A stretch of 62,753 nt of DNA, counting the filler, from Candidatus Woesearchaeota archaeon (lineage in GTDB: Archaea; Nanobdellota; Nanobdellia; Woesearchaeales; BM511), in the NCBI GenBank assembly GCA_023266675.1. It is 3 parts of 3 records of this genome, joined end to end, with 100 filler letters (N's around TTAATTAATTAA, not from the genome) between each part and the next. Parts side by side here need not be neighbours in the genome. Positions count along the whole stretch, not along the records: positions 1 to 28,227 come from JAHFPP010000009.1; 2 more parts are not named here. The stretch is one strand, 5' to 3'. How positions within the stretch are numbered: the stretch's first letter is position 1; each line of letters opens with the position of its first letter. Shown in pieces: positions 23,357 through 27,068 of this stretch. A program made the position numbers and the translations under genes. Below the pieces are notes generated by a model. It searched no databases. It saw only the letters and a list, made by a program, of their open reading frames with translations, and was not told the DNA's origin.

Positions 23357-24795
23357 AAAAGATATTCGAACTTAATAAAAAAGCATCAATAGCAATTCTT
23401 CTCATGATATTTCTGGTTACATTTTCATTTCTTGGTGTTGCAAGATATCAAAAAAACAGTGCTTTAATTGGAGATGAATCATATTATCACCTAAGACTCT
23501 CTGAAAACATTGAAAAAAACGGATTTGAAAAAAATGGATTATCAGACAATGATTTATCATTGATTTTAGGACAGAAATATTATTTTAATCTAATTGATTT
23601 TGTTTTATCGCTTGTAAAACACAAGATTATATTCATGATAACAATTCCGCTTCTGCTTGGATTAGCCTCATTAATATTTTTTTATCTGGCACTTTCAAGG
23701 ATAGGTATAGAAAATAACCAGGTATTTTTTTCGTCAATACTCCTTATTTTGTCACCGCCTTTTATATACATATTTTCATCATATACTGTCTATCCTTTTC
23801 TTGTTTTTTTTAACATCCTTTTCCTGTTTTTATATTTAAACAACATGAAAAAGCTCTCTTTTCTGGCTATAATCCCAACATTATTTATAAGTCTCCCATC
23901 AGTATTTTTGACGTCTTTGATACTATTTTTTATCTATATATTCAATAAAAAGGACAAGCGTGAGATACTGATATCATCTTCATTATTAATATTAACCTCA
24001 TTAATAATATATTTCACCTTCTATTTTCCAAATTTTATTCCAAACAAGCTTTTTTTCTTTCACAGAAACATTTTTTCAAGAATAATATCTGACCTTGGAG
24101 CTAGCATAGGAATCAGCATATTTCATTTGGTTCTTGCATTTATCGGGCTTCTTGTAATAAAGACAAAAGAGAAAAGATTTCCAAATTACTTAATTCTTCT
24201 TTTCGCATTGATACTTTCAATATTTTTTAATCTTATAATGATATTTTTCAACTTCTTTGTGTGTTTTCTCGCATCATATTCATTATCGGAGATTTATCAT
24301 AAAAAATGGGAGATAGATGTACTAAAAAATATTACATTAATACTCATAATTTACGGTCTTTTATTTTCAAGTTTTTCTTTTCAGACAAGGTTAATCAGTT
24401 CAAGTCCTACAATTGAGGAAATAAACGCGCTAGCATTCTTAAAGGATAACCCATCTGGAGTTGTTTTTTCGCACTTCTCAAACGGCTATCAGATAGAGTA
24501 TTTTTCAGAGAAAAGCGCAATGATAGACCAAAGAATCTACACATTAAATAACGGCAAAGAATTATTGAATGATTCAAACACGATATTCTTTTCAAGAAAC
24601 ATTCAAACTACAAAGAAGCTGCTTGAGAAAAACAATATCTCTTATATTTTTATAAACAAGGAAATGAAAGACGGGCTTATATGGGACAAGCGAAATCAGG
24701 GGCTTCTTTTCCTTCTTGACAAATCTACAGATTTTAAAAATATATATGACAAAGATGAAGTGGAAATATGGCAAGTTTTATCATCAAAAAATTGA
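23353..24795 (+). CDS. GT-C fold multipass membrane protein (AglB/STT3-like), paralogue of the upstream gene
   Basis: GDESYYHLRLSENI; VFSHFSNGYQIEYFSEKSAMID...NISYIFI; ATGA overlap gives start 23353. Confidence 0.65.
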   Translation: MKKIFELNKKASIAILLMIFLVTFSFLGVARYQKNSALIGDESYYHLRLSENIEKNGFEKNGLSDNDLSLILGQKYYFNLIDFVLSLVKHKIIFMITIPLLLGLASLIFFYLALSRIGIENNQVFFSSILLILSPPFIYIFSSYTVYPFLVFFNILFLFLYLNNMKKLSFLAIIPTLFISLPSVFLTSLILFFIYIFNKKDKREILISSSLLILTSLIIYFTFYFPNFIPNKLFFFHRNIFSRIISDLGASIGISIFHLVLAFIGLLVIKTKEKRFPNYLILLFALILSIFFNLIMIFFNFFVCFLASYSLSEIYHKKWEIDVLKNITLILIIYGLLFSSFSFQTRLISSSPTIEEINALAFLKDNPSGVVFSHFSNGYQIEYFSEKSAMIDQRIYTLNNGKELLNDSNTIFFSRNIQTTKKLLEKNNISYIFINKEMKDGLIWDKRNQGLLFLLDKSTDFKNIYDKDEVEIWQVLSSKN

Positions 24796-24948
24796 ATTCT
24801 TCAATATTCTAGAATCATCCATATTTGGATGGATTTTAAAGGATTTTCCGCAATAAACACACCTTTTGACTTTATCAGTTAATATCTCTCCTTTAGGATT
24901 GCATTTCTGGTCATGATTGCATTTTGGGCACTTTACTGTTAGTATCAT
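24784..24948 (-). CDS. 54-aa zinc-ribbon protein (not in the ORF track)
   Basis: MILTVKCPKCNHDQKCNPKGEILTDKVKRCVYCGKSFKIHPNMDDSRILKNSIF*; upstream GAAGGT SD. Confidence 0.75.
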   Translation of the reverse strand: MILTVKCPKCNHDQKCNPKGEILTDKVKRCVYCGKSFKIHPNMDDSRILKNSIF

Positions 24949-24970
24949 ATTATTACCTTCTAAATAAACG

Positions 24971-25083
24971 CGCCGCGGCTGAGAGTTTCACTCAGGCACT
25001 AAGGTGCGTGCGATTTGAACTCAGAAGGCTTGGAAGCCAGCGATGTATCAGACCGCCGCGCTACCAGATTGCGCGACCGCGGC
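24971..25083 (-). tRNA. tRNA with GAT (Ile) anticodon but Ser-like body (long variable arm, G73); 29-nt intron at position 59/60 (24985-25013); CCA not encoded
   Basis: GCCGCGG TC GCGC AATCTGGTA GCGC G GCGGT CTGATAC ATCGC TGGCTTCCAAGCCTT CTGAG TTCAAA[intron]T CTCAG CCGCGGC G; upstream TATATAAA. Confidence 0.9.
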
Positions 25084-25139
25084 ATAACTTCGACACAAAT
25101 TTTATATATCACAACTATCTACTATTATTTGTATCAGAT

Positions 25140-25424
25140 CGCTGTGTTACCGGTTGTGTGACCGGTTTTCTTTTATTTTTTTAAATAAGAATTTGTTTAT
25201 ATATCTCACGCGTTCATGTCCAGTGGGTTTTCTACTATTTTTATGACGACAAAGAGATGTCCAGTGACCCGCAATAAAACATGGTTTTCTGTGCACAGAA
25301 AATGCGTTTTTACATTTTCTTGTGTTTTAATAAAGGTCAAACAAAACAGTTAGGACTATTTATCGTCGATAAATAGTCCTTATTTTCGGTGTAAACGGAC
25401 GAAATCGTTTGTCCAGTGGGTTTT
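25140..25424. repeat. Non-coding repeat/palindrome cluster, candidate replication origin
   Basis: TGTCCAGTGGGTTTT at 25217 and 25410, TGTCCAGTG at 25258; palindromes at 25285-25302 and 25352-25380. Confidence 0.5.
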
Positions 25425-27068
25425 TTATCTTTGATAAATATCTAAATCTCTTTTGTCAAAAGCGCTTAATCTTTCAGCATGGTTAATTCCATACCCATTC
25501 ATAAGAAGAGTTGATATTGTTTCTGAAACTCTGCCTTCTAAAATCCTTTCTTGTCTTTTACCTGTTTCTATTGCAAAAGCTTCATATTCTGGAGAGTAAT
25601 CTTTTTCTGTGCTTTCAATAAGAGTTAGAAGATTGTTGTATCCTTCAATCATGCCTCTTACATTCAAAAAAGATCTATTATATCCTTCATTGTCTCCACG
25701 CATTTGCACAAGTCTGGATTCTTTCTTCATTACAGCTAAAACTTTTTCTGCGTTTACTGTTATTCTTCCTTTTTCTGATGAAGGATAAAAGAATGAGAAA
25801 TTAGGTGCATTTTTAAGATTCATATCAAAAAATGGGAAAAATTCTTCAACTAAAGATAAAGCCAAAATTTGCCTATCCTCCAATCGTTTGCCATATTCAC
25901 TCTTATTCTTTAACAAAAGGTCTGCATAGCTTTCAATAGCGGAAAGATGACTAAAGAAATCTTCCTTTGAAATTATCCCAGCTTCATGTATGCAATGAAT
26001 CAATGGTCGTGAGTATAATGTGTCGTAAATAAATTTTTCATAAGGCATTATTCTTGCAAGCTCAAGCTCAGTTTTTGAGACCTCGTGAACTTCTACGCTT
26101 TGAAATGGCACTTTAAAATTTATTTTTCCTTTGGAAATGGAGATGGGGAATGCATAAGACAAGTCATCAACAAGGGCGACATCTCCTGTTCTTAAATCCA
26201 TGGATATATTATGAGGATGAAACTCTCCGCTAAATCCGTTCATTCCAAAATCAACCGAATACTTTTTATTAAAATAAGACTTAGGGATATCATGCGCAGT
26301 AAGTATTGCAGTGTCATCTCTCCCTTGAAAAAAGTTTAGTTGATTAAGAATACTGCCAACAGATGAGAATATGTATTCCATATACTCTTTCGGGCTAATT
26401 TCTTTAACATCTGCAAGCTCCTTCATCAGCTGAGGAGTCAAAAATGATAACCTTATCGCTTCTGTTTTTTGCTCTGTAATGCTTATTGAGAAAGGTGTAT
26501 GTGCAGGAATTACAAGCTTTTCTTCATTTGAATCTATACCATAAAATTGTTCTGGAGCATTTGACATGAATTCTAAGAAGGCAACAGGAGTGTTGTGAAA
26601 AGGAATTCCATTATCCATAAGGTGACTATGAAGCGAAAGTGACCGTCCTATCTCTGACTCCAATACCGCAGGTGGCATTGAAGGAAGAGTCGGCGCATAT
26701 GAAGTGAACGTTGTTAGACTTCTGCTTGGCGGATGCCTTGGTGAGAATGTCCTTAAAATATAGGTTTTATCATCTATCCTTGCTTCAAAGCGGCGATATG
26801 AAAAAGGAGATGGAATAAAAGTTATTCGTTTATCGCTCTTTGTGTTTCTTATTACATATCTTGGAGTTGTCTTATAATATCTCCATATTGCTTCGTTAGC
26901 AACATCTGTGCTGAATGCAGGGGAATACAATTCTAAAATAGGATTAATTTCTGTTCTAAGGTGGGTTATATCTCTAAGAAGCTCAACGCTGCCGTTAACA
27001 ATTTCTTCCAAAAGTATTTTTGAAGAGTCGTCTTTAGAAAAATTATTTGTAAGGATGGAGACCGTCAT
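25425..27068 (-). CDS. Hypothetical protein, possible atypical kinase-like fold
   Basis: 547-aa ORF; LESEIGRSL..H..L...GIP and GEFHPHNI...VDD motifs. Confidence 0.55.
   Translation of the reverse strand: MTVSILTNNFSKDDSSKILLEEIVNGSVELLRDITHLRTEINPILELYSPAFSTDVANEAIWRYYKTTPRYVIRNTKSDKRITFIPSPFSYRRFEARIDDKTYILRTFSPRHPPSRSLTTFTSYAPTLPSMPPAVLESEIGRSLSLHSHLMDNGIPFHNTPVAFLEFMSNAPEQFYGIDSNEEKLVIPAHTPFSISITEQKTEAIRLSFLTPQLMKELADVKEISPKEYMEYIFSSVGSILNQLNFFQGRDDTAILTAHDIPKSYFNKKYSVDFGMNGFSGEFHPHNISMDLRTGDVALVDDLSYAFPISISKGKINFKVPFQSVEVHEVSKTELELARIMPYEKFIYDTLYSRPLIHCIHEAGIISKEDFFSHLSAIESYADLLLKNKSEYGKRLEDRQILALSLVEEFFPFFDMNLKNAPNFSFFYPSSEKGRITVNAEKVLAVMKKESRLVQMRGDNEGYNRSFLNVRGMIEGYNNLLTLIESTEKDYSPEYEAFAIETGKRQERILEGRVSETISTLLMNGYGINHAERLSAFDKRDLDIYQR

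Follow-up and report, generated by a model that had tools for sequence, protein, structure and literature searches.

Natural tRNAs in which the body and the anticodon belong to different amino acids are rare test cases for mistranslation that is tolerated or exploited. In Candida and the other CTG-clade yeasts, tRNA-Ser(CAG) combines a serine body, with a long variable arm and G73, with a Leu-family anticodon, and is charged mainly with Ser. The nematode nev-tRNAs are class-II tRNAs with a leucine-type body that are charged with Leu, occur with two anticodons, including Ile(UAU), and are kept beside the normal decoders; we know of no antisense gene linked to them. In Streptomyces and its relatives, the accessory tRNA-ProX carries a mismatched anticodon, is thought to serve regulated mistranslation and has a dedicated synthetase paralog, ProRSx. 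Bacterial allo-tRNAs reportedly have a serine- or selenocysteine-like body with an 8/4 or 9/3 acceptor/T-stem and are predicted to misread sense codons. Here, we analyzed a stretch of 62,753 nucleotides (the window, that is, the whole stretch of DNA under analysis) from a tiny groundwater-dwelling Candidatus Woesearchaeota archaeon (assembly GCA_023266675.1), which contains, at positions 24971..25083 on the minus strand, a gene for a tRNA with a serine-type body and the isoleucine anticodon GAT. This gene belongs to a family of serine-bodied tRNAs that share an A at position 35 of the anticodon (A35), and it is accompanied by a conserved upstream module that may encode a cognate antisense RNA.

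Like Candida tRNA-Ser(CAG), the window gene joins a serine body to A35, and CAG is also among the anticodons of the archaeal family. Unlike the Candida tRNA, which is the sole decoder of a reassigned codon, it occurs where the codons are normal and a normal decoder is present, and its family is archaeal and intron-bearing, has 10 anticodons of the form NAN and has a putative antisense partner. It shares with the nev-tRNAs a class-II body bearing the anticodon of another amino acid, beside normal decoders, and differs from these eukaryotic, leucine-bodied tRNAs in being archaeal, in its serine body and in the linked putative antisense unit. As with tRNA-ProX, it is a natural accessory tRNA whose anticodon does not match its identity; unlike the tRNA-ProX/ProRSx pair, it is found with a single seryl-tRNA synthetase (SerRS), and the linked element would be an RNA, not an enzyme. 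The allo-tRNAs, which come from genomes and metagenomes and can be compared with it as body-anticodon mismatches, are described in the available part of their source without an A35 rule or an antisense partner (Mukai et al. 2017, PMC5389517); the window gene has the canonical 7/5 acceptor/T-stem, unlike the 8/4 or 9/3 of that class. The gene is a member of none of these four groups and would work like such chimeras. Two other kinds of system bear a resemblance. In type I toxin-antitoxin pairs such as hok/sok, the toxin is a small membrane peptide and the antisense RNA acts on the toxin mRNA; the window locus would resemble them in an adjacent putative antisense small RNA (sRNA), for which conserved promoter and terminator signals are present in the sequence, and unlike hok/sok the presumed harmful product is a tRNA, so that the antisense would bind a mature or precursor tRNA. 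Non-canonical bulge-helix-bulge (BHB) tRNA introns occur in the archaeal Thermoproteales, Korarchaeota and DPANN; the window gene resembles such genes in its 59/60 T-loop intron, its relaxed motif and its being missed by standard finders, features that are packaging only and leave the mismatch of body and anticodon unexplained. A search of full-text literature, mostly outside subscription journals, turned up neither archaeal tRNAs that combine a serine body with a NAN anticodon nor an antisense gene devoted to a tRNA, and neither feature is mentioned in the available parts of the Nanobdellota preprint, the Pyrobaculum small-RNA paper or the tRNAscan-SE 2.0 paper.

The 113-nt pre-tRNA gene, which runs along the minus strand (25083 to 24971), has a 7-bp acceptor stem (GCCGCGG/CCGCGGC) followed by G73, T8, G26, a D arm (GCGC-AATCTGGTA-GCGC) with G18G19, a 5-bp anticodon stem (GCGGT/ATCGC) closing the 7-nt loop CTGATAC with T33 and A37, a variable arm (GGCT-TCCA-AGCC), and a T arm with a 5-bp stem (CTGAG/CTCAG) whose loop, TTCAAAT, is interrupted by an insert of about 29 nt. 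Every element of the serine-type body that the initial annotation had listed, namely the stems, G73 and the long variable arm, was thereby confirmed together with the GAT anticodon, which lies at 25047..25049 (minus strand; atc on the plus strand) and occupies the same loop columns in all of the relatives read. The 5′ exon (25014..25083, minus strand, delimited by eye) covers tRNA positions 1–70, from the acceptor 5′ strand through the D arm, anticodon arm, variable arm and T stem 5′ strand to most of the T loop. The intron (24985..25013, minus strand, with ends uncertain by 1–2 nt) separates positions 59 and 60, and the 3′ exon (24971..24984, minus strand) supplies the last T-loop base, CTCAG, CCGCGGC and the discriminator G73, CCA not being encoded. 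All of the features of a canonical cloverleaf (RF00005-type: stems, G18G19, U33, purine 37 and T arm) are present. Of the hallmarks of class-II tRNA-Ser, the gene has the long variable arm and G73 and lacks an NGA or GCU anticodon; of those of tRNA-Ile(GAU), it has the anticodon and lacks the class-I body, with its variable loop of 4–5 nt, and A73. The variable region measures 15 nt, a length shared by 31 of the 46 true Ser tRNAs read in the order. Within the insert, the T-loop TTCA pairs with a TGAA near the insert end to form a 4-bp helix with 3-nt bulges (AAT and ACT); this helix is identical in 5/5 paralogs, and the inner flanking helix is weak, as in a relaxed motif. With two 3-nt bulges, a 4-bp helix and flanking helices, the insert resembles an archaeal BHB intron. 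Its removal is predicted to leave 84 nt, and the intron-less serine tRNAs and relatives measure 83–84 nt.

Standard searches did not call this gene. ARAGORN reported no tRNA across the 62.7-kb window, and Rfam returned no match there at the gathering score; RF00005 gave only 16.4 bits on the gene, as a partial match over the D and anticodon arms (25040–25074), because the T-loop intron interrupts it. When introns were allowed, ARAGORN called 28 tRNAs in the genome, none of them from the A35 family. A BLAST search of the tRNA against 40 relatives found nothing beyond its own genome and was insensitive, since a covariance model later found relatives, and an exact 20-mer scan of metagenome contigs gave no match. 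That covariance model (R1), built from the GAT gene and four paralogs, scores the gene at 121.9 bits. In the alignment of these five sequences, 95.1% of the cells pair, compared with 39–48% in slid registers; 11 of the 29 base pairs change on both sides, with compensatory changes in every stem, and the observed covariation was reached in 0 of 500 shuffles. The assembly itself was checked against a 4832-nt contig made by an independent assembler from the DNA run holding the locus, which covers 24600–25287 at depth 7 with no differences; this run is probably the source sample, so the comparison is with a second assembly, not a second sample, and bears on the assembly, not on the biology. The gene is intact, and its structure is maintained by selection. 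Very probably it is a functional member of a family of serine-bodied tRNAs with NAN anticodons, as opposed to an error or to an ordinary tRNA for Ile or Ser.

The genome (1.22 Mb in 83 contigs, 95.9% complete) holds six genes of this family, the window gene with GAT (on contig C34) and five paralogs; here as throughout, anticodons were read from alignments or by eye. One paralog also has GAT (C57:7703-7818), one has GAG (C78:1-113, cut by the contig end), and three have GAA (C66:16912-17027, C31:6454-6566 and C33:6539-6773), the last of these carrying an additional intron behind the anticodon loop as well as a long one in the T loop. The six loci lie in differing housekeeping contexts, with no integrase and no common flanks beyond the module described below. 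The normal decoders are also present. tRNA-Ile(GAT) at C30:2107-2201 is a class-I tRNA with a short variable loop, A73 and a 37/38 intron, and an intron-less relative of it was found; this agrees with the statement of the initial annotation that tRNA-Ile normally has A73 and a short variable loop. A tRNA-Phe(GAA) on C77 and a tRNA-Leu(GAG) on C52 complete the set, and the normal Ile, Phe and Leu tRNAs of the genome all carry A73. The only Ser tRNA of usual anticodon found in the assembly is an ordinary tRNA-Ser(TGA) on C12, whose D arm is resembled by that of the GAT gene; tRNA-Ser(GCT), (GGA) and (CGA) were not found there by ARAGORN, Rfam or our own scans, an absence that carries little weight because Cys, Tyr and many other tRNAs are missing too. 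A stricter acceptor/T-arm pattern scan of the genome gave no further convincing tRNA. Altogether, these three approaches found about 38 tRNA genes genome-wide, many of them intron-bearing and none for Cys or Tyr, and standard tools badly under-call the tRNA set of this lineage. At C73:6270-6409 lies an intron-interrupted class-I tRNA gene whose loop, CTTATA..., gives the anticodon TAT (Ile, AUA); among archaea, a tRNA-Ile(UAU) is uncommon. The genome encodes one SerRS, of 430 aa on C1, with a Seryl_tRNA_N arm, the N-terminal arm by which SerRS binds long variable arms. The IleRS, 1093 aa long, is encoded on C52. Three proteins carry the Anticodon_1 domain, and no second IleRS-, LeuRS- or ValRS-like gene was seen among them.

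Searching relatives with R1 placed these genes in a broader family. The model matches 151 of 151 sampled genomes of the order (Woesearchaeota-type DPANN), a count in which ordinary serine tRNAs are included, as are the unpublished genomes G114, G123 and G134, which no other claim uses. We read 105 matches from 33 genomes, comprising the top R1 matches and all matches of ten closed or match-rich genomes; removal of duplicates and of three rows with unparsable anticodons left 100 serine-bodied tRNAs. Of these, 46 are true Ser tRNAs (GGA, TGA, CGA or GCT) and 54 have A35 anticodons directed at Phe, Leu, Ile or Val codons, a proportion that is not a prevalence, the relatives being top matches to a model built from the family. 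The 54 comprise GAA (15), GAT (11), GAG (9), GAC (6), CAG (4), AAG (4), TAA (3), TAG (1) and TAT (1); two further members have CAA, which brings the NAN anticodons to 10 overall. Non-serine anticodons with G35, C35 or U35 do not occur among the 100 classified serine-bodied tRNAs. A scan of metagenome contigs with the family 3′ end as pattern yielded 43 loci, and A35 was found in all 25 distinct loci analyzed. The A35 tRNAs match true Ser tRNAs in G73 (52/54 versus 45/46) and, for the most part, in the 15-nt variable region. They differ in the frequency of a T-loop intron or insert (53/54 versus 18/46), of C38 (29/51 versus 0/29) and of a pyrimidine at position 37 (15/53 versus 0/46), and their D arm is much less conserved.

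In a weakly resolved tree built from 75 columns, with the anticodon loop and introns excluded, the A35 tRNAs sit among the Ser tRNAs in at least three clades, and the A35 label requires 5 changes, compared with about 33 for shuffled labels. Positions 34 and 36 vary among close paralogs, and A35 is constant. The closed genomes G087, G031 and G099 have no A35-type tRNA among their model matches, and G019 has one. The best 20 matches in other orders of the class, from 15 genomes, are all ordinary serine tRNAs; within what was searched, the A35 family appears confined to this order. Relatives that have the A35 family also keep a separate tRNA-Ser(GCT), for example G046, G112, G081 and G010. Two checks that the initial annotation had proposed, for separate Ile(GAT) and Ser(GCT) genes and for relatives of the same kind, were thus answered in part for the former, with Ile(GAT) present and Ser(GCT) found in relatives and not in this assembly, and positively for the latter, as dozens of relatives carry this kind of anticodon. 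In four of the metagenome loci (L178, L179, L188 and L196), a further insert of 40–110 nt lies between the variable arm and the T stem; these inserts have a conserved palindromic core in common and resemble a mobile intron.

The codons that these anticodons would read retain their standard meaning. We aligned the product of the AspRS gene adjoining the C78 paralog with 111 of 120 listed homologs, the nine closest having been dropped, and examined the columns that were at least 80% conserved; the sources of these homologs assign them to Woesearchaeota or Nanoarchaeota, which also places the organism. TTT codons fall on F in 14/14 such columns and TTC codons on F in 10/10, CTT codons fall on L in 14/15, and ATT and ATC codons together fall on I in 4/6, the rest being V and M; AGC codons fall on S in 3/3. 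No NUN codon falls on a conserved serine column of this alignment. The codons are otherwise standard and there is no reassignment, in keeping with the view of the initial annotation that wholesale reassignment was not supported. Six of the 120 listed AspRS homologs of the lineage (P0008, P0030, P0046, P0060, P0073 and P0107), of about 740 aa, carry an extra PF04073 domain (YbaK/ProX-type aminoacyl-tRNA editing); such a fusion to a deacylase, found where mismatched tRNAs occur, may merit attention.

Alignment of the six loci of the genome revealed a common order upstream of the tRNA, which consists of a TATA box, a partial copy of the gene, an A-run and a second TATA box with GTGAG and CACTGGACA boxes. 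In the window, the partial copy is a degenerate version of the tRNA 5′ half on the minus strand (local alignment at −81..−46). On the plus strand, the same segment (25130..25164) is complementary, with G.U wobbles, to tRNA positions ~4–40, including the anticodon loop, and would form the core of a putative antisense sRNA, or anti-tRNA. The TATA box TTTATATA (25100..25109, plus strand) lies 21 nt before the first complementary base and ends 17 nt from the tRNA 5′ end, and a terminator-like 7-pair hairpin with a T-run (25149..25182, plus strand), identified in a terminator scan as a hairpin at 25149-25166 followed by TTTCTTTTAT, would end the antisense RNA; the 700-nt region has 4 terminator-like sites, compared with 0.5 in shuffles. 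In the genomes of the order, 27 of the 54 A35-type loci have an upstream copy, as do 24 of the 25 metagenome loci, and in the own-genome loci the copy shares its anticodon loop with its own gene. It keeps a fixed position, about 40–80 nt from the gene, across differing housekeeping contexts. An A-run precedes the copy in 25/27 copy-bearing A35 loci and 24/24 metagenome loci, and a copy with such an A-run occurs in 0/46 true Ser loci; on the antisense strand, 26/27 copy-bearing loci have a T-run and 19/27 have a hairpin of ≥4 bp. The TATA box is located 17–27 nt before the complementarity in 17/27 genome loci and 15–28 nt before it in 14/24 metagenome loci; in the remaining loci the local alignment overshoots. 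This spacing equals the distance from TATA box to ATG in the leaderless genes of the genome (15–23 nt). The near TATA box ends 17 nt from the tRNA in three of the own loci and about 60 nt from it, owing to a 45-nt insertion, in two. Across most loci it is 6–17 nt from the tRNA, too close to serve it, because in 20-odd ordinary tRNA genes, measured by eye, the TATA box lies at about −35 to −48.

The differences between tRNA and copy are strand-asymmetric. In 26 genome loci, the per-base rate of change is 22% for G>A and 7% for C>T (Fisher 2e-7), and 9% for T>C and 3% for A>G (Fisher 0.003); in 24 metagenome loci the corresponding figures are 19% and 4% (Fisher 9e-8) and 17% and 3.5% (Fisher 4e-6). 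Because the loci and paralogs are kin, these Fisher and binomial values are stronger than the data warrant. The favored changes, G>A and T>C, retain G.U pairing in an antisense:tRNA duplex, whereas C>T and A>G would break pairs. The predicted duplex of the window is 35 bp long, nearly continuous, with an energy of −62.3 kcal/mol compared with −24.4 (sd 3.8) for shuffles, and each antisense has its own cognate tRNA as best duplex partner in 5/5 loci. Together, these conserved signals suggest that the upstream copy is a putative small antisense gene on the opposite strand. Other identities for it were considered and rejected. As a box C/D or H/ACA guide, it would be expected to show boxes, and none were seen by eye on the antisense strand; against Rfam, the region 24800-25500 gave a best score of 20.9 bits compared with a gathering score of 95. 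An att or integration remnant is at odds with the fixed distance, the differing housekeeping contexts and the lack of an integrase, and the template repeat of a diversity-generating retroelement is at odds with the changes, which are G>A and T>C transitions and indels, not A-to-any. Some true tRNA-Ser genes (among L072-L087, in G099, G031 and G028) have their initial ~14 nt duplicated about 60–70 nt upstream. By eye, this duplicate supplies one side (5′) of a leader hairpin, the other side (3′) being complementary to the 5′ end of the same tRNA; unlike the antisense unit, the duplicate has no A-run.

One genome, G112, has about 15 family genes, all without an upstream copy. In 10 of these 15 members, the loop of the T-loop intron hairpin is complementary to anticodon-loop positions 33–37/38: GCTCA is found with GAG, GGTCA with GAC, GGTTCA with GAA, and GTCTCA with GAG and A37. 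In the alignment of the 10 members, 87.8% of the cells pair, compared with 20–50% in slid registers, and one pair switches between C-G and G-C in a ratio of 4:3, a result that 11 of 500 shuffles equal. This is modest evidence, from one genome, that the intron loop may act as a second kind of RNA partner to the anticodon loop. The G112 members with a complementary intron loop carry C37 (L051, L101, L107, L111, L113, L115, L117, L119, L121 and L123).

Transcription of the tRNA itself probably starts beyond the copy. An upstream sense promoter, P1 (25196..25225, minus strand), consists of a CACTGGACA box, 11 nt, GTGAG and TATATAAA, and probably drives the tRNA through the copy region. The window contains three CACTGGACA boxes (25217-25225, 25258-25266 and 25410-25418, minus strand), all within 200 nt upstream of the tRNA, where 0.15 would be expected in the 62.7 kb and 0 of 100 shuffles reach three. 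With up to one mismatch, the box is present in 12/27 copy-bearing A35 loci and 18/25 metagenome loci, and in 0/27 copy-less and 0/46 true Ser loci. A P1-type promoter also lies 15–23 nt before the ATG of three leaderless genes. Overall, the CACTGGACA...GTGAG-TATA arrangement precedes ten protein genes in the genome, of which nine were run against Pfam (promoter-linked sites at C1:8751, C2:40447, C9:9220, C13:8658, C18:4785, C31:4516, C47:7912, C76:13123 and C83:10266). Named from Pfam only, these nine encode a KilA-N protein, an Mrr-type nuclease fold, two LAGLIDADG-like proteins (one below cut-off), a MazE-type antitoxin, a DUF7557 protein, a Hef-like protein (ERCC4 nuclease plus helicase) and two proteins without a reliable match. 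The clients of the promoter look like a conflict, damage or defence set.

Our tentative reading, in which we place rather less than even confidence, is that the gene specifies a conditional, SerRS-charged tRNA that would insert Ser at AUU/AUC and would be held in check by its cognate anti-tRNA. Removal of the T-loop intron would give an 84-nt tRNA with the serine identity set, that is, the long variable arm and G73, which the one SerRS of the genome would be expected to charge. According to the portion of the source available to us, archaeal SerRS takes G73 as a strong determinant, serine identity does not depend on the anticodon, and G73 acts as an antideterminant toward the LeuRS of H. volcanii (PMC9976931), which upholds the view of the initial annotation that G73 and a long variable arm confer serine identity whatever the anticodon. 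G73 would keep both LeuRS and IleRS off, and on the ribosome the tRNA would compete with the normal class-I tRNA-Ile(GAU) and place Ser at AUU/AUC. A tRNA of this kind would be harmful; yeast is killed by the accumulation of many tRNA-Ser anticodon variants, as stated in the accessible part of PMC6125640. The gene appears to be gated in two ways. A first gate could be transcriptional, there being no promoter at the usual distance and transcription coming from the upstream CACTGGACA promoter. As a second gate, a duplex of ~35 bp between the antisense RNA and the D arm and anticodon loop of the tRNA could prevent its folding, charging or decoding. The outcome would be a conditional, stress- or defence-linked, translation-poisoning tRNA with its own RNA antidote. 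The anatomy, the family, its A35 rule, the conserved module and the lack of codon reassignment are observed; that SerRS charges the tRNA, that both strands are transcribed, that the antisense RNA acts on the tRNA, and what would trigger the system are what we infer. The initial annotation had offered Ser insertion at AUU/AUC among its possibilities, next to a non-translational tRNA and a mutated tRNA-Ser(GCT); that interpretation is borne out in part, and it did not include the paralog family, the restriction to A35, the antisense unit or the shared promoter.

Several points weigh against a conditional Ser-inserting tRNA. The metatranscriptome run of the same sample gave 0 contigs for the locus; the tRNA, its splicing and the antisense RNA are predicted from the DNA sequence, and charging by SerRS is argued from rules of other archaea. 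A weaker determinant, G30-C40, is a G.U pair in the window gene and A-U in the C66 copy. Part of the family has features odd for a decoder, with a pyrimidine at 37 in 15/53, A34 in 4, C33 in 3 and a relaxed D arm; the window gene itself has a normal loop with U33 and A37. The TATA boxes are palindromic, and their orientation is argued from spacing. As many as 27 of the 54 family loci have neither the upstream copy nor the CACTGGACA box, so that only part of the family has the gating module. Pure toxicity is difficult to reconcile with a cell that maintains as many as about 15 of these genes, as in G112. The kinship of the loci and the sampling of the 100 tRNAs, given above with the figures that they affect, belong here too.

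The same features could also come from a tRNA-shaped RNA that never decodes. Under this main alternative, which we regard as possible and rather doubtful, the anticodon loop would be a pairing module for a complementary RNA, and the tRNA-shaped RNA would not enter the ribosome. The pair could take part in regulation at the RNA level, or could serve as bait or decoy for a factor such as an anticodon nuclease or another protein that binds tRNA. The odd loops and relaxed D arm in part of the family would suit such a role, as would the patchiness of the family in closed genomes and the fact that an element complementary to the loop seems to be kept in every clade, either as the upstream unit (27/54) or as the intron loop of G112 (10/15). 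Conservation of the aminoacylation and elbow apparatus (7-bp acceptor stem, G73 in 52/54, G18G19, TTCAAAT and variable arm) would be costly for a pairing loop, however, and a strict A35 with free positions 34 and 36 fits codon space, namely the hydrophobic U column, and would be meaningless for a generic pairing loop.

The reading of a conditional Ser-inserting tRNA can be extended to the whole family, in a form that we consider unlikely as it stands. The family would then be a tRNA poison-antidote system in which Ser tRNAs are aimed at hydrophobic NUN codons, the column where serine would do most damage, each is silenced by its own anti-tRNA, and each is switched on from a promoter held in common with nuclease, antitoxin and DNA-repair genes. 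The antidote would be an antisense sRNA encoded upstream of the gene or, in a single clade, the intron after its excision, and the outcome would be translation poisoning or scrambling of the proteome during virus attack, DNA damage or host conflict. If true, this would be the first toxin-antitoxin-like module with a tRNA as its toxin and the first dedicated antisense regulator of a tRNA.

A more conservative decoder would be charged by IleRS, through G34-A35-U36, or by LeuRS, in its capacity of class-II tRNA with A35, and would insert Ile or Leu; it could be, for example, a spare tRNA whose different body lets it escape a nuclease of a virus or competitor that is specific for the anticodon arm or the body. 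This alternative draws on A35 being the sole invariant anticodon base. A35 is an identity element in the Ile, Val, Met and Phe systems. Leu anticodons account for 18/54 members, or 20/56 when the two CAA members are counted, and A35 is common to all Leu isoacceptors according to the available portion of PMC9976931. A promoter held in common with nuclease and antitoxin genes would also suit a conflict setting. It is nevertheless improbable, since G73 is found in 52/54 members whatever the anticodon, and four synthetases would not all select G73, which is an antideterminant for archaeal LeuRS and is replaced by A73 in the genome's ordinary tRNAs for Ile, Phe and Leu; nor was any second IleRS-, LeuRS- or ValRS-like gene seen among the three Anticodon_1 proteins.

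That the family is a decaying or selfish tRNA-derived repeat, with the upstream copy a leftover of duplication or integration, appears very unlikely. Its members are multicopy, patchy, fast-evolving and not called by standard tRNA finders, and other short dispersed repeats adjoin the window gene. Such a repeat would not be expected to show compensatory changes in 11/29 pairs with 95% of the cells pairing, a module geometry fixed across many families of the order and in 24/25 metagenome loci, or a copy that diverges in a strand-asymmetric, pairing-compatible manner and not by symmetric decay, and the six copies lie in differing housekeeping contexts with no integrase or common flanks beyond the module. 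Finally, a tRNA-Ser(GCU) with a C35-to-A sequencing or assembly error or recent point mutation, as the initial annotation had allowed, would fit the single base between GAT and GCT, the lack of a tRNA-Ser(GCT) in the assembly and the AGC codons at conserved Ser columns (3/3), and is almost certainly not the explanation, given the agreement of the second assembly, the GAT, GAA and GAG paralogs (the second GAT gene having an upstream copy with the same loop), the ten further GAT members among dozens of A35 relatives, and the separate Ser(GCT) genes that relatives keep.

Four other ways of reconciling body and anticodon were rejected. A shifted anticodon, UGA at positions 33–35, would read a Ser codon and is lacking in the CAG, TAG, AAG, TAA, CAA and TAT members. 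Editing of A35 to give GGA or GCU would demand two products that no single chemistry gives, and relatives keep Ser(GGA) and Ser(GCT) genes. The variable arm could not be an intron of a class-I tRNA-Ile, as it pairs and covaries like Ser arms, G73 persists, and a normal tRNA-Ile is present. An extra synthetase for the mismatched tRNA finds no candidate, with one SerRS, three Anticodon_1 proteins and nothing spare.

These genes would add the first archaeal family of tRNAs with mismatched body and anticodon, a family that follows a clear A35 rule, is represented many times per genome and has a conserved control module. Should the antisense partner prove real, it would represent a new mode of tRNA regulation and a candidate new RNA-only toxin/antidote or defence class in DPANN archaea. 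Because standard annotation misses these genes, the tRNA sets of such genomes, and genetic-code inferences drawn from them, are incomplete.

Two features of the neighborhood deserve mention. Just upstream of the promoter lies a short dispersed repeat (25300-25425, minus strand), with a 13-bp perfect hairpin at 25352-25380 and a conserved tail. Pieces of it occur on at least ten contigs (C8, C66, C13, C76, C40, C50, C33, C83, C58 and C9), and one copy is located inside the long T-loop intron of the C33 paralog. Over 25189-25374, depth in the DNA run climbs from 7 to about 50. The repeat may be a miniature inverted-repeat transposable element or an unknown small RNA; its best Rfam score, 20.9 bits, is far below gathering. 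On the other side, a 54-codon open reading frame (24784-24948, minus strand) begins 22 nt past the tRNA 3′ end, is preceded by a GAAGGT Shine-Dalgarno-like motif and has two CxxC pairs that look zinc-ribbon-like by eye. A co-oriented gene is found close downstream in 5/6 family loci, and the tRNA may therefore be cotranscribed with its downstream neighbor.

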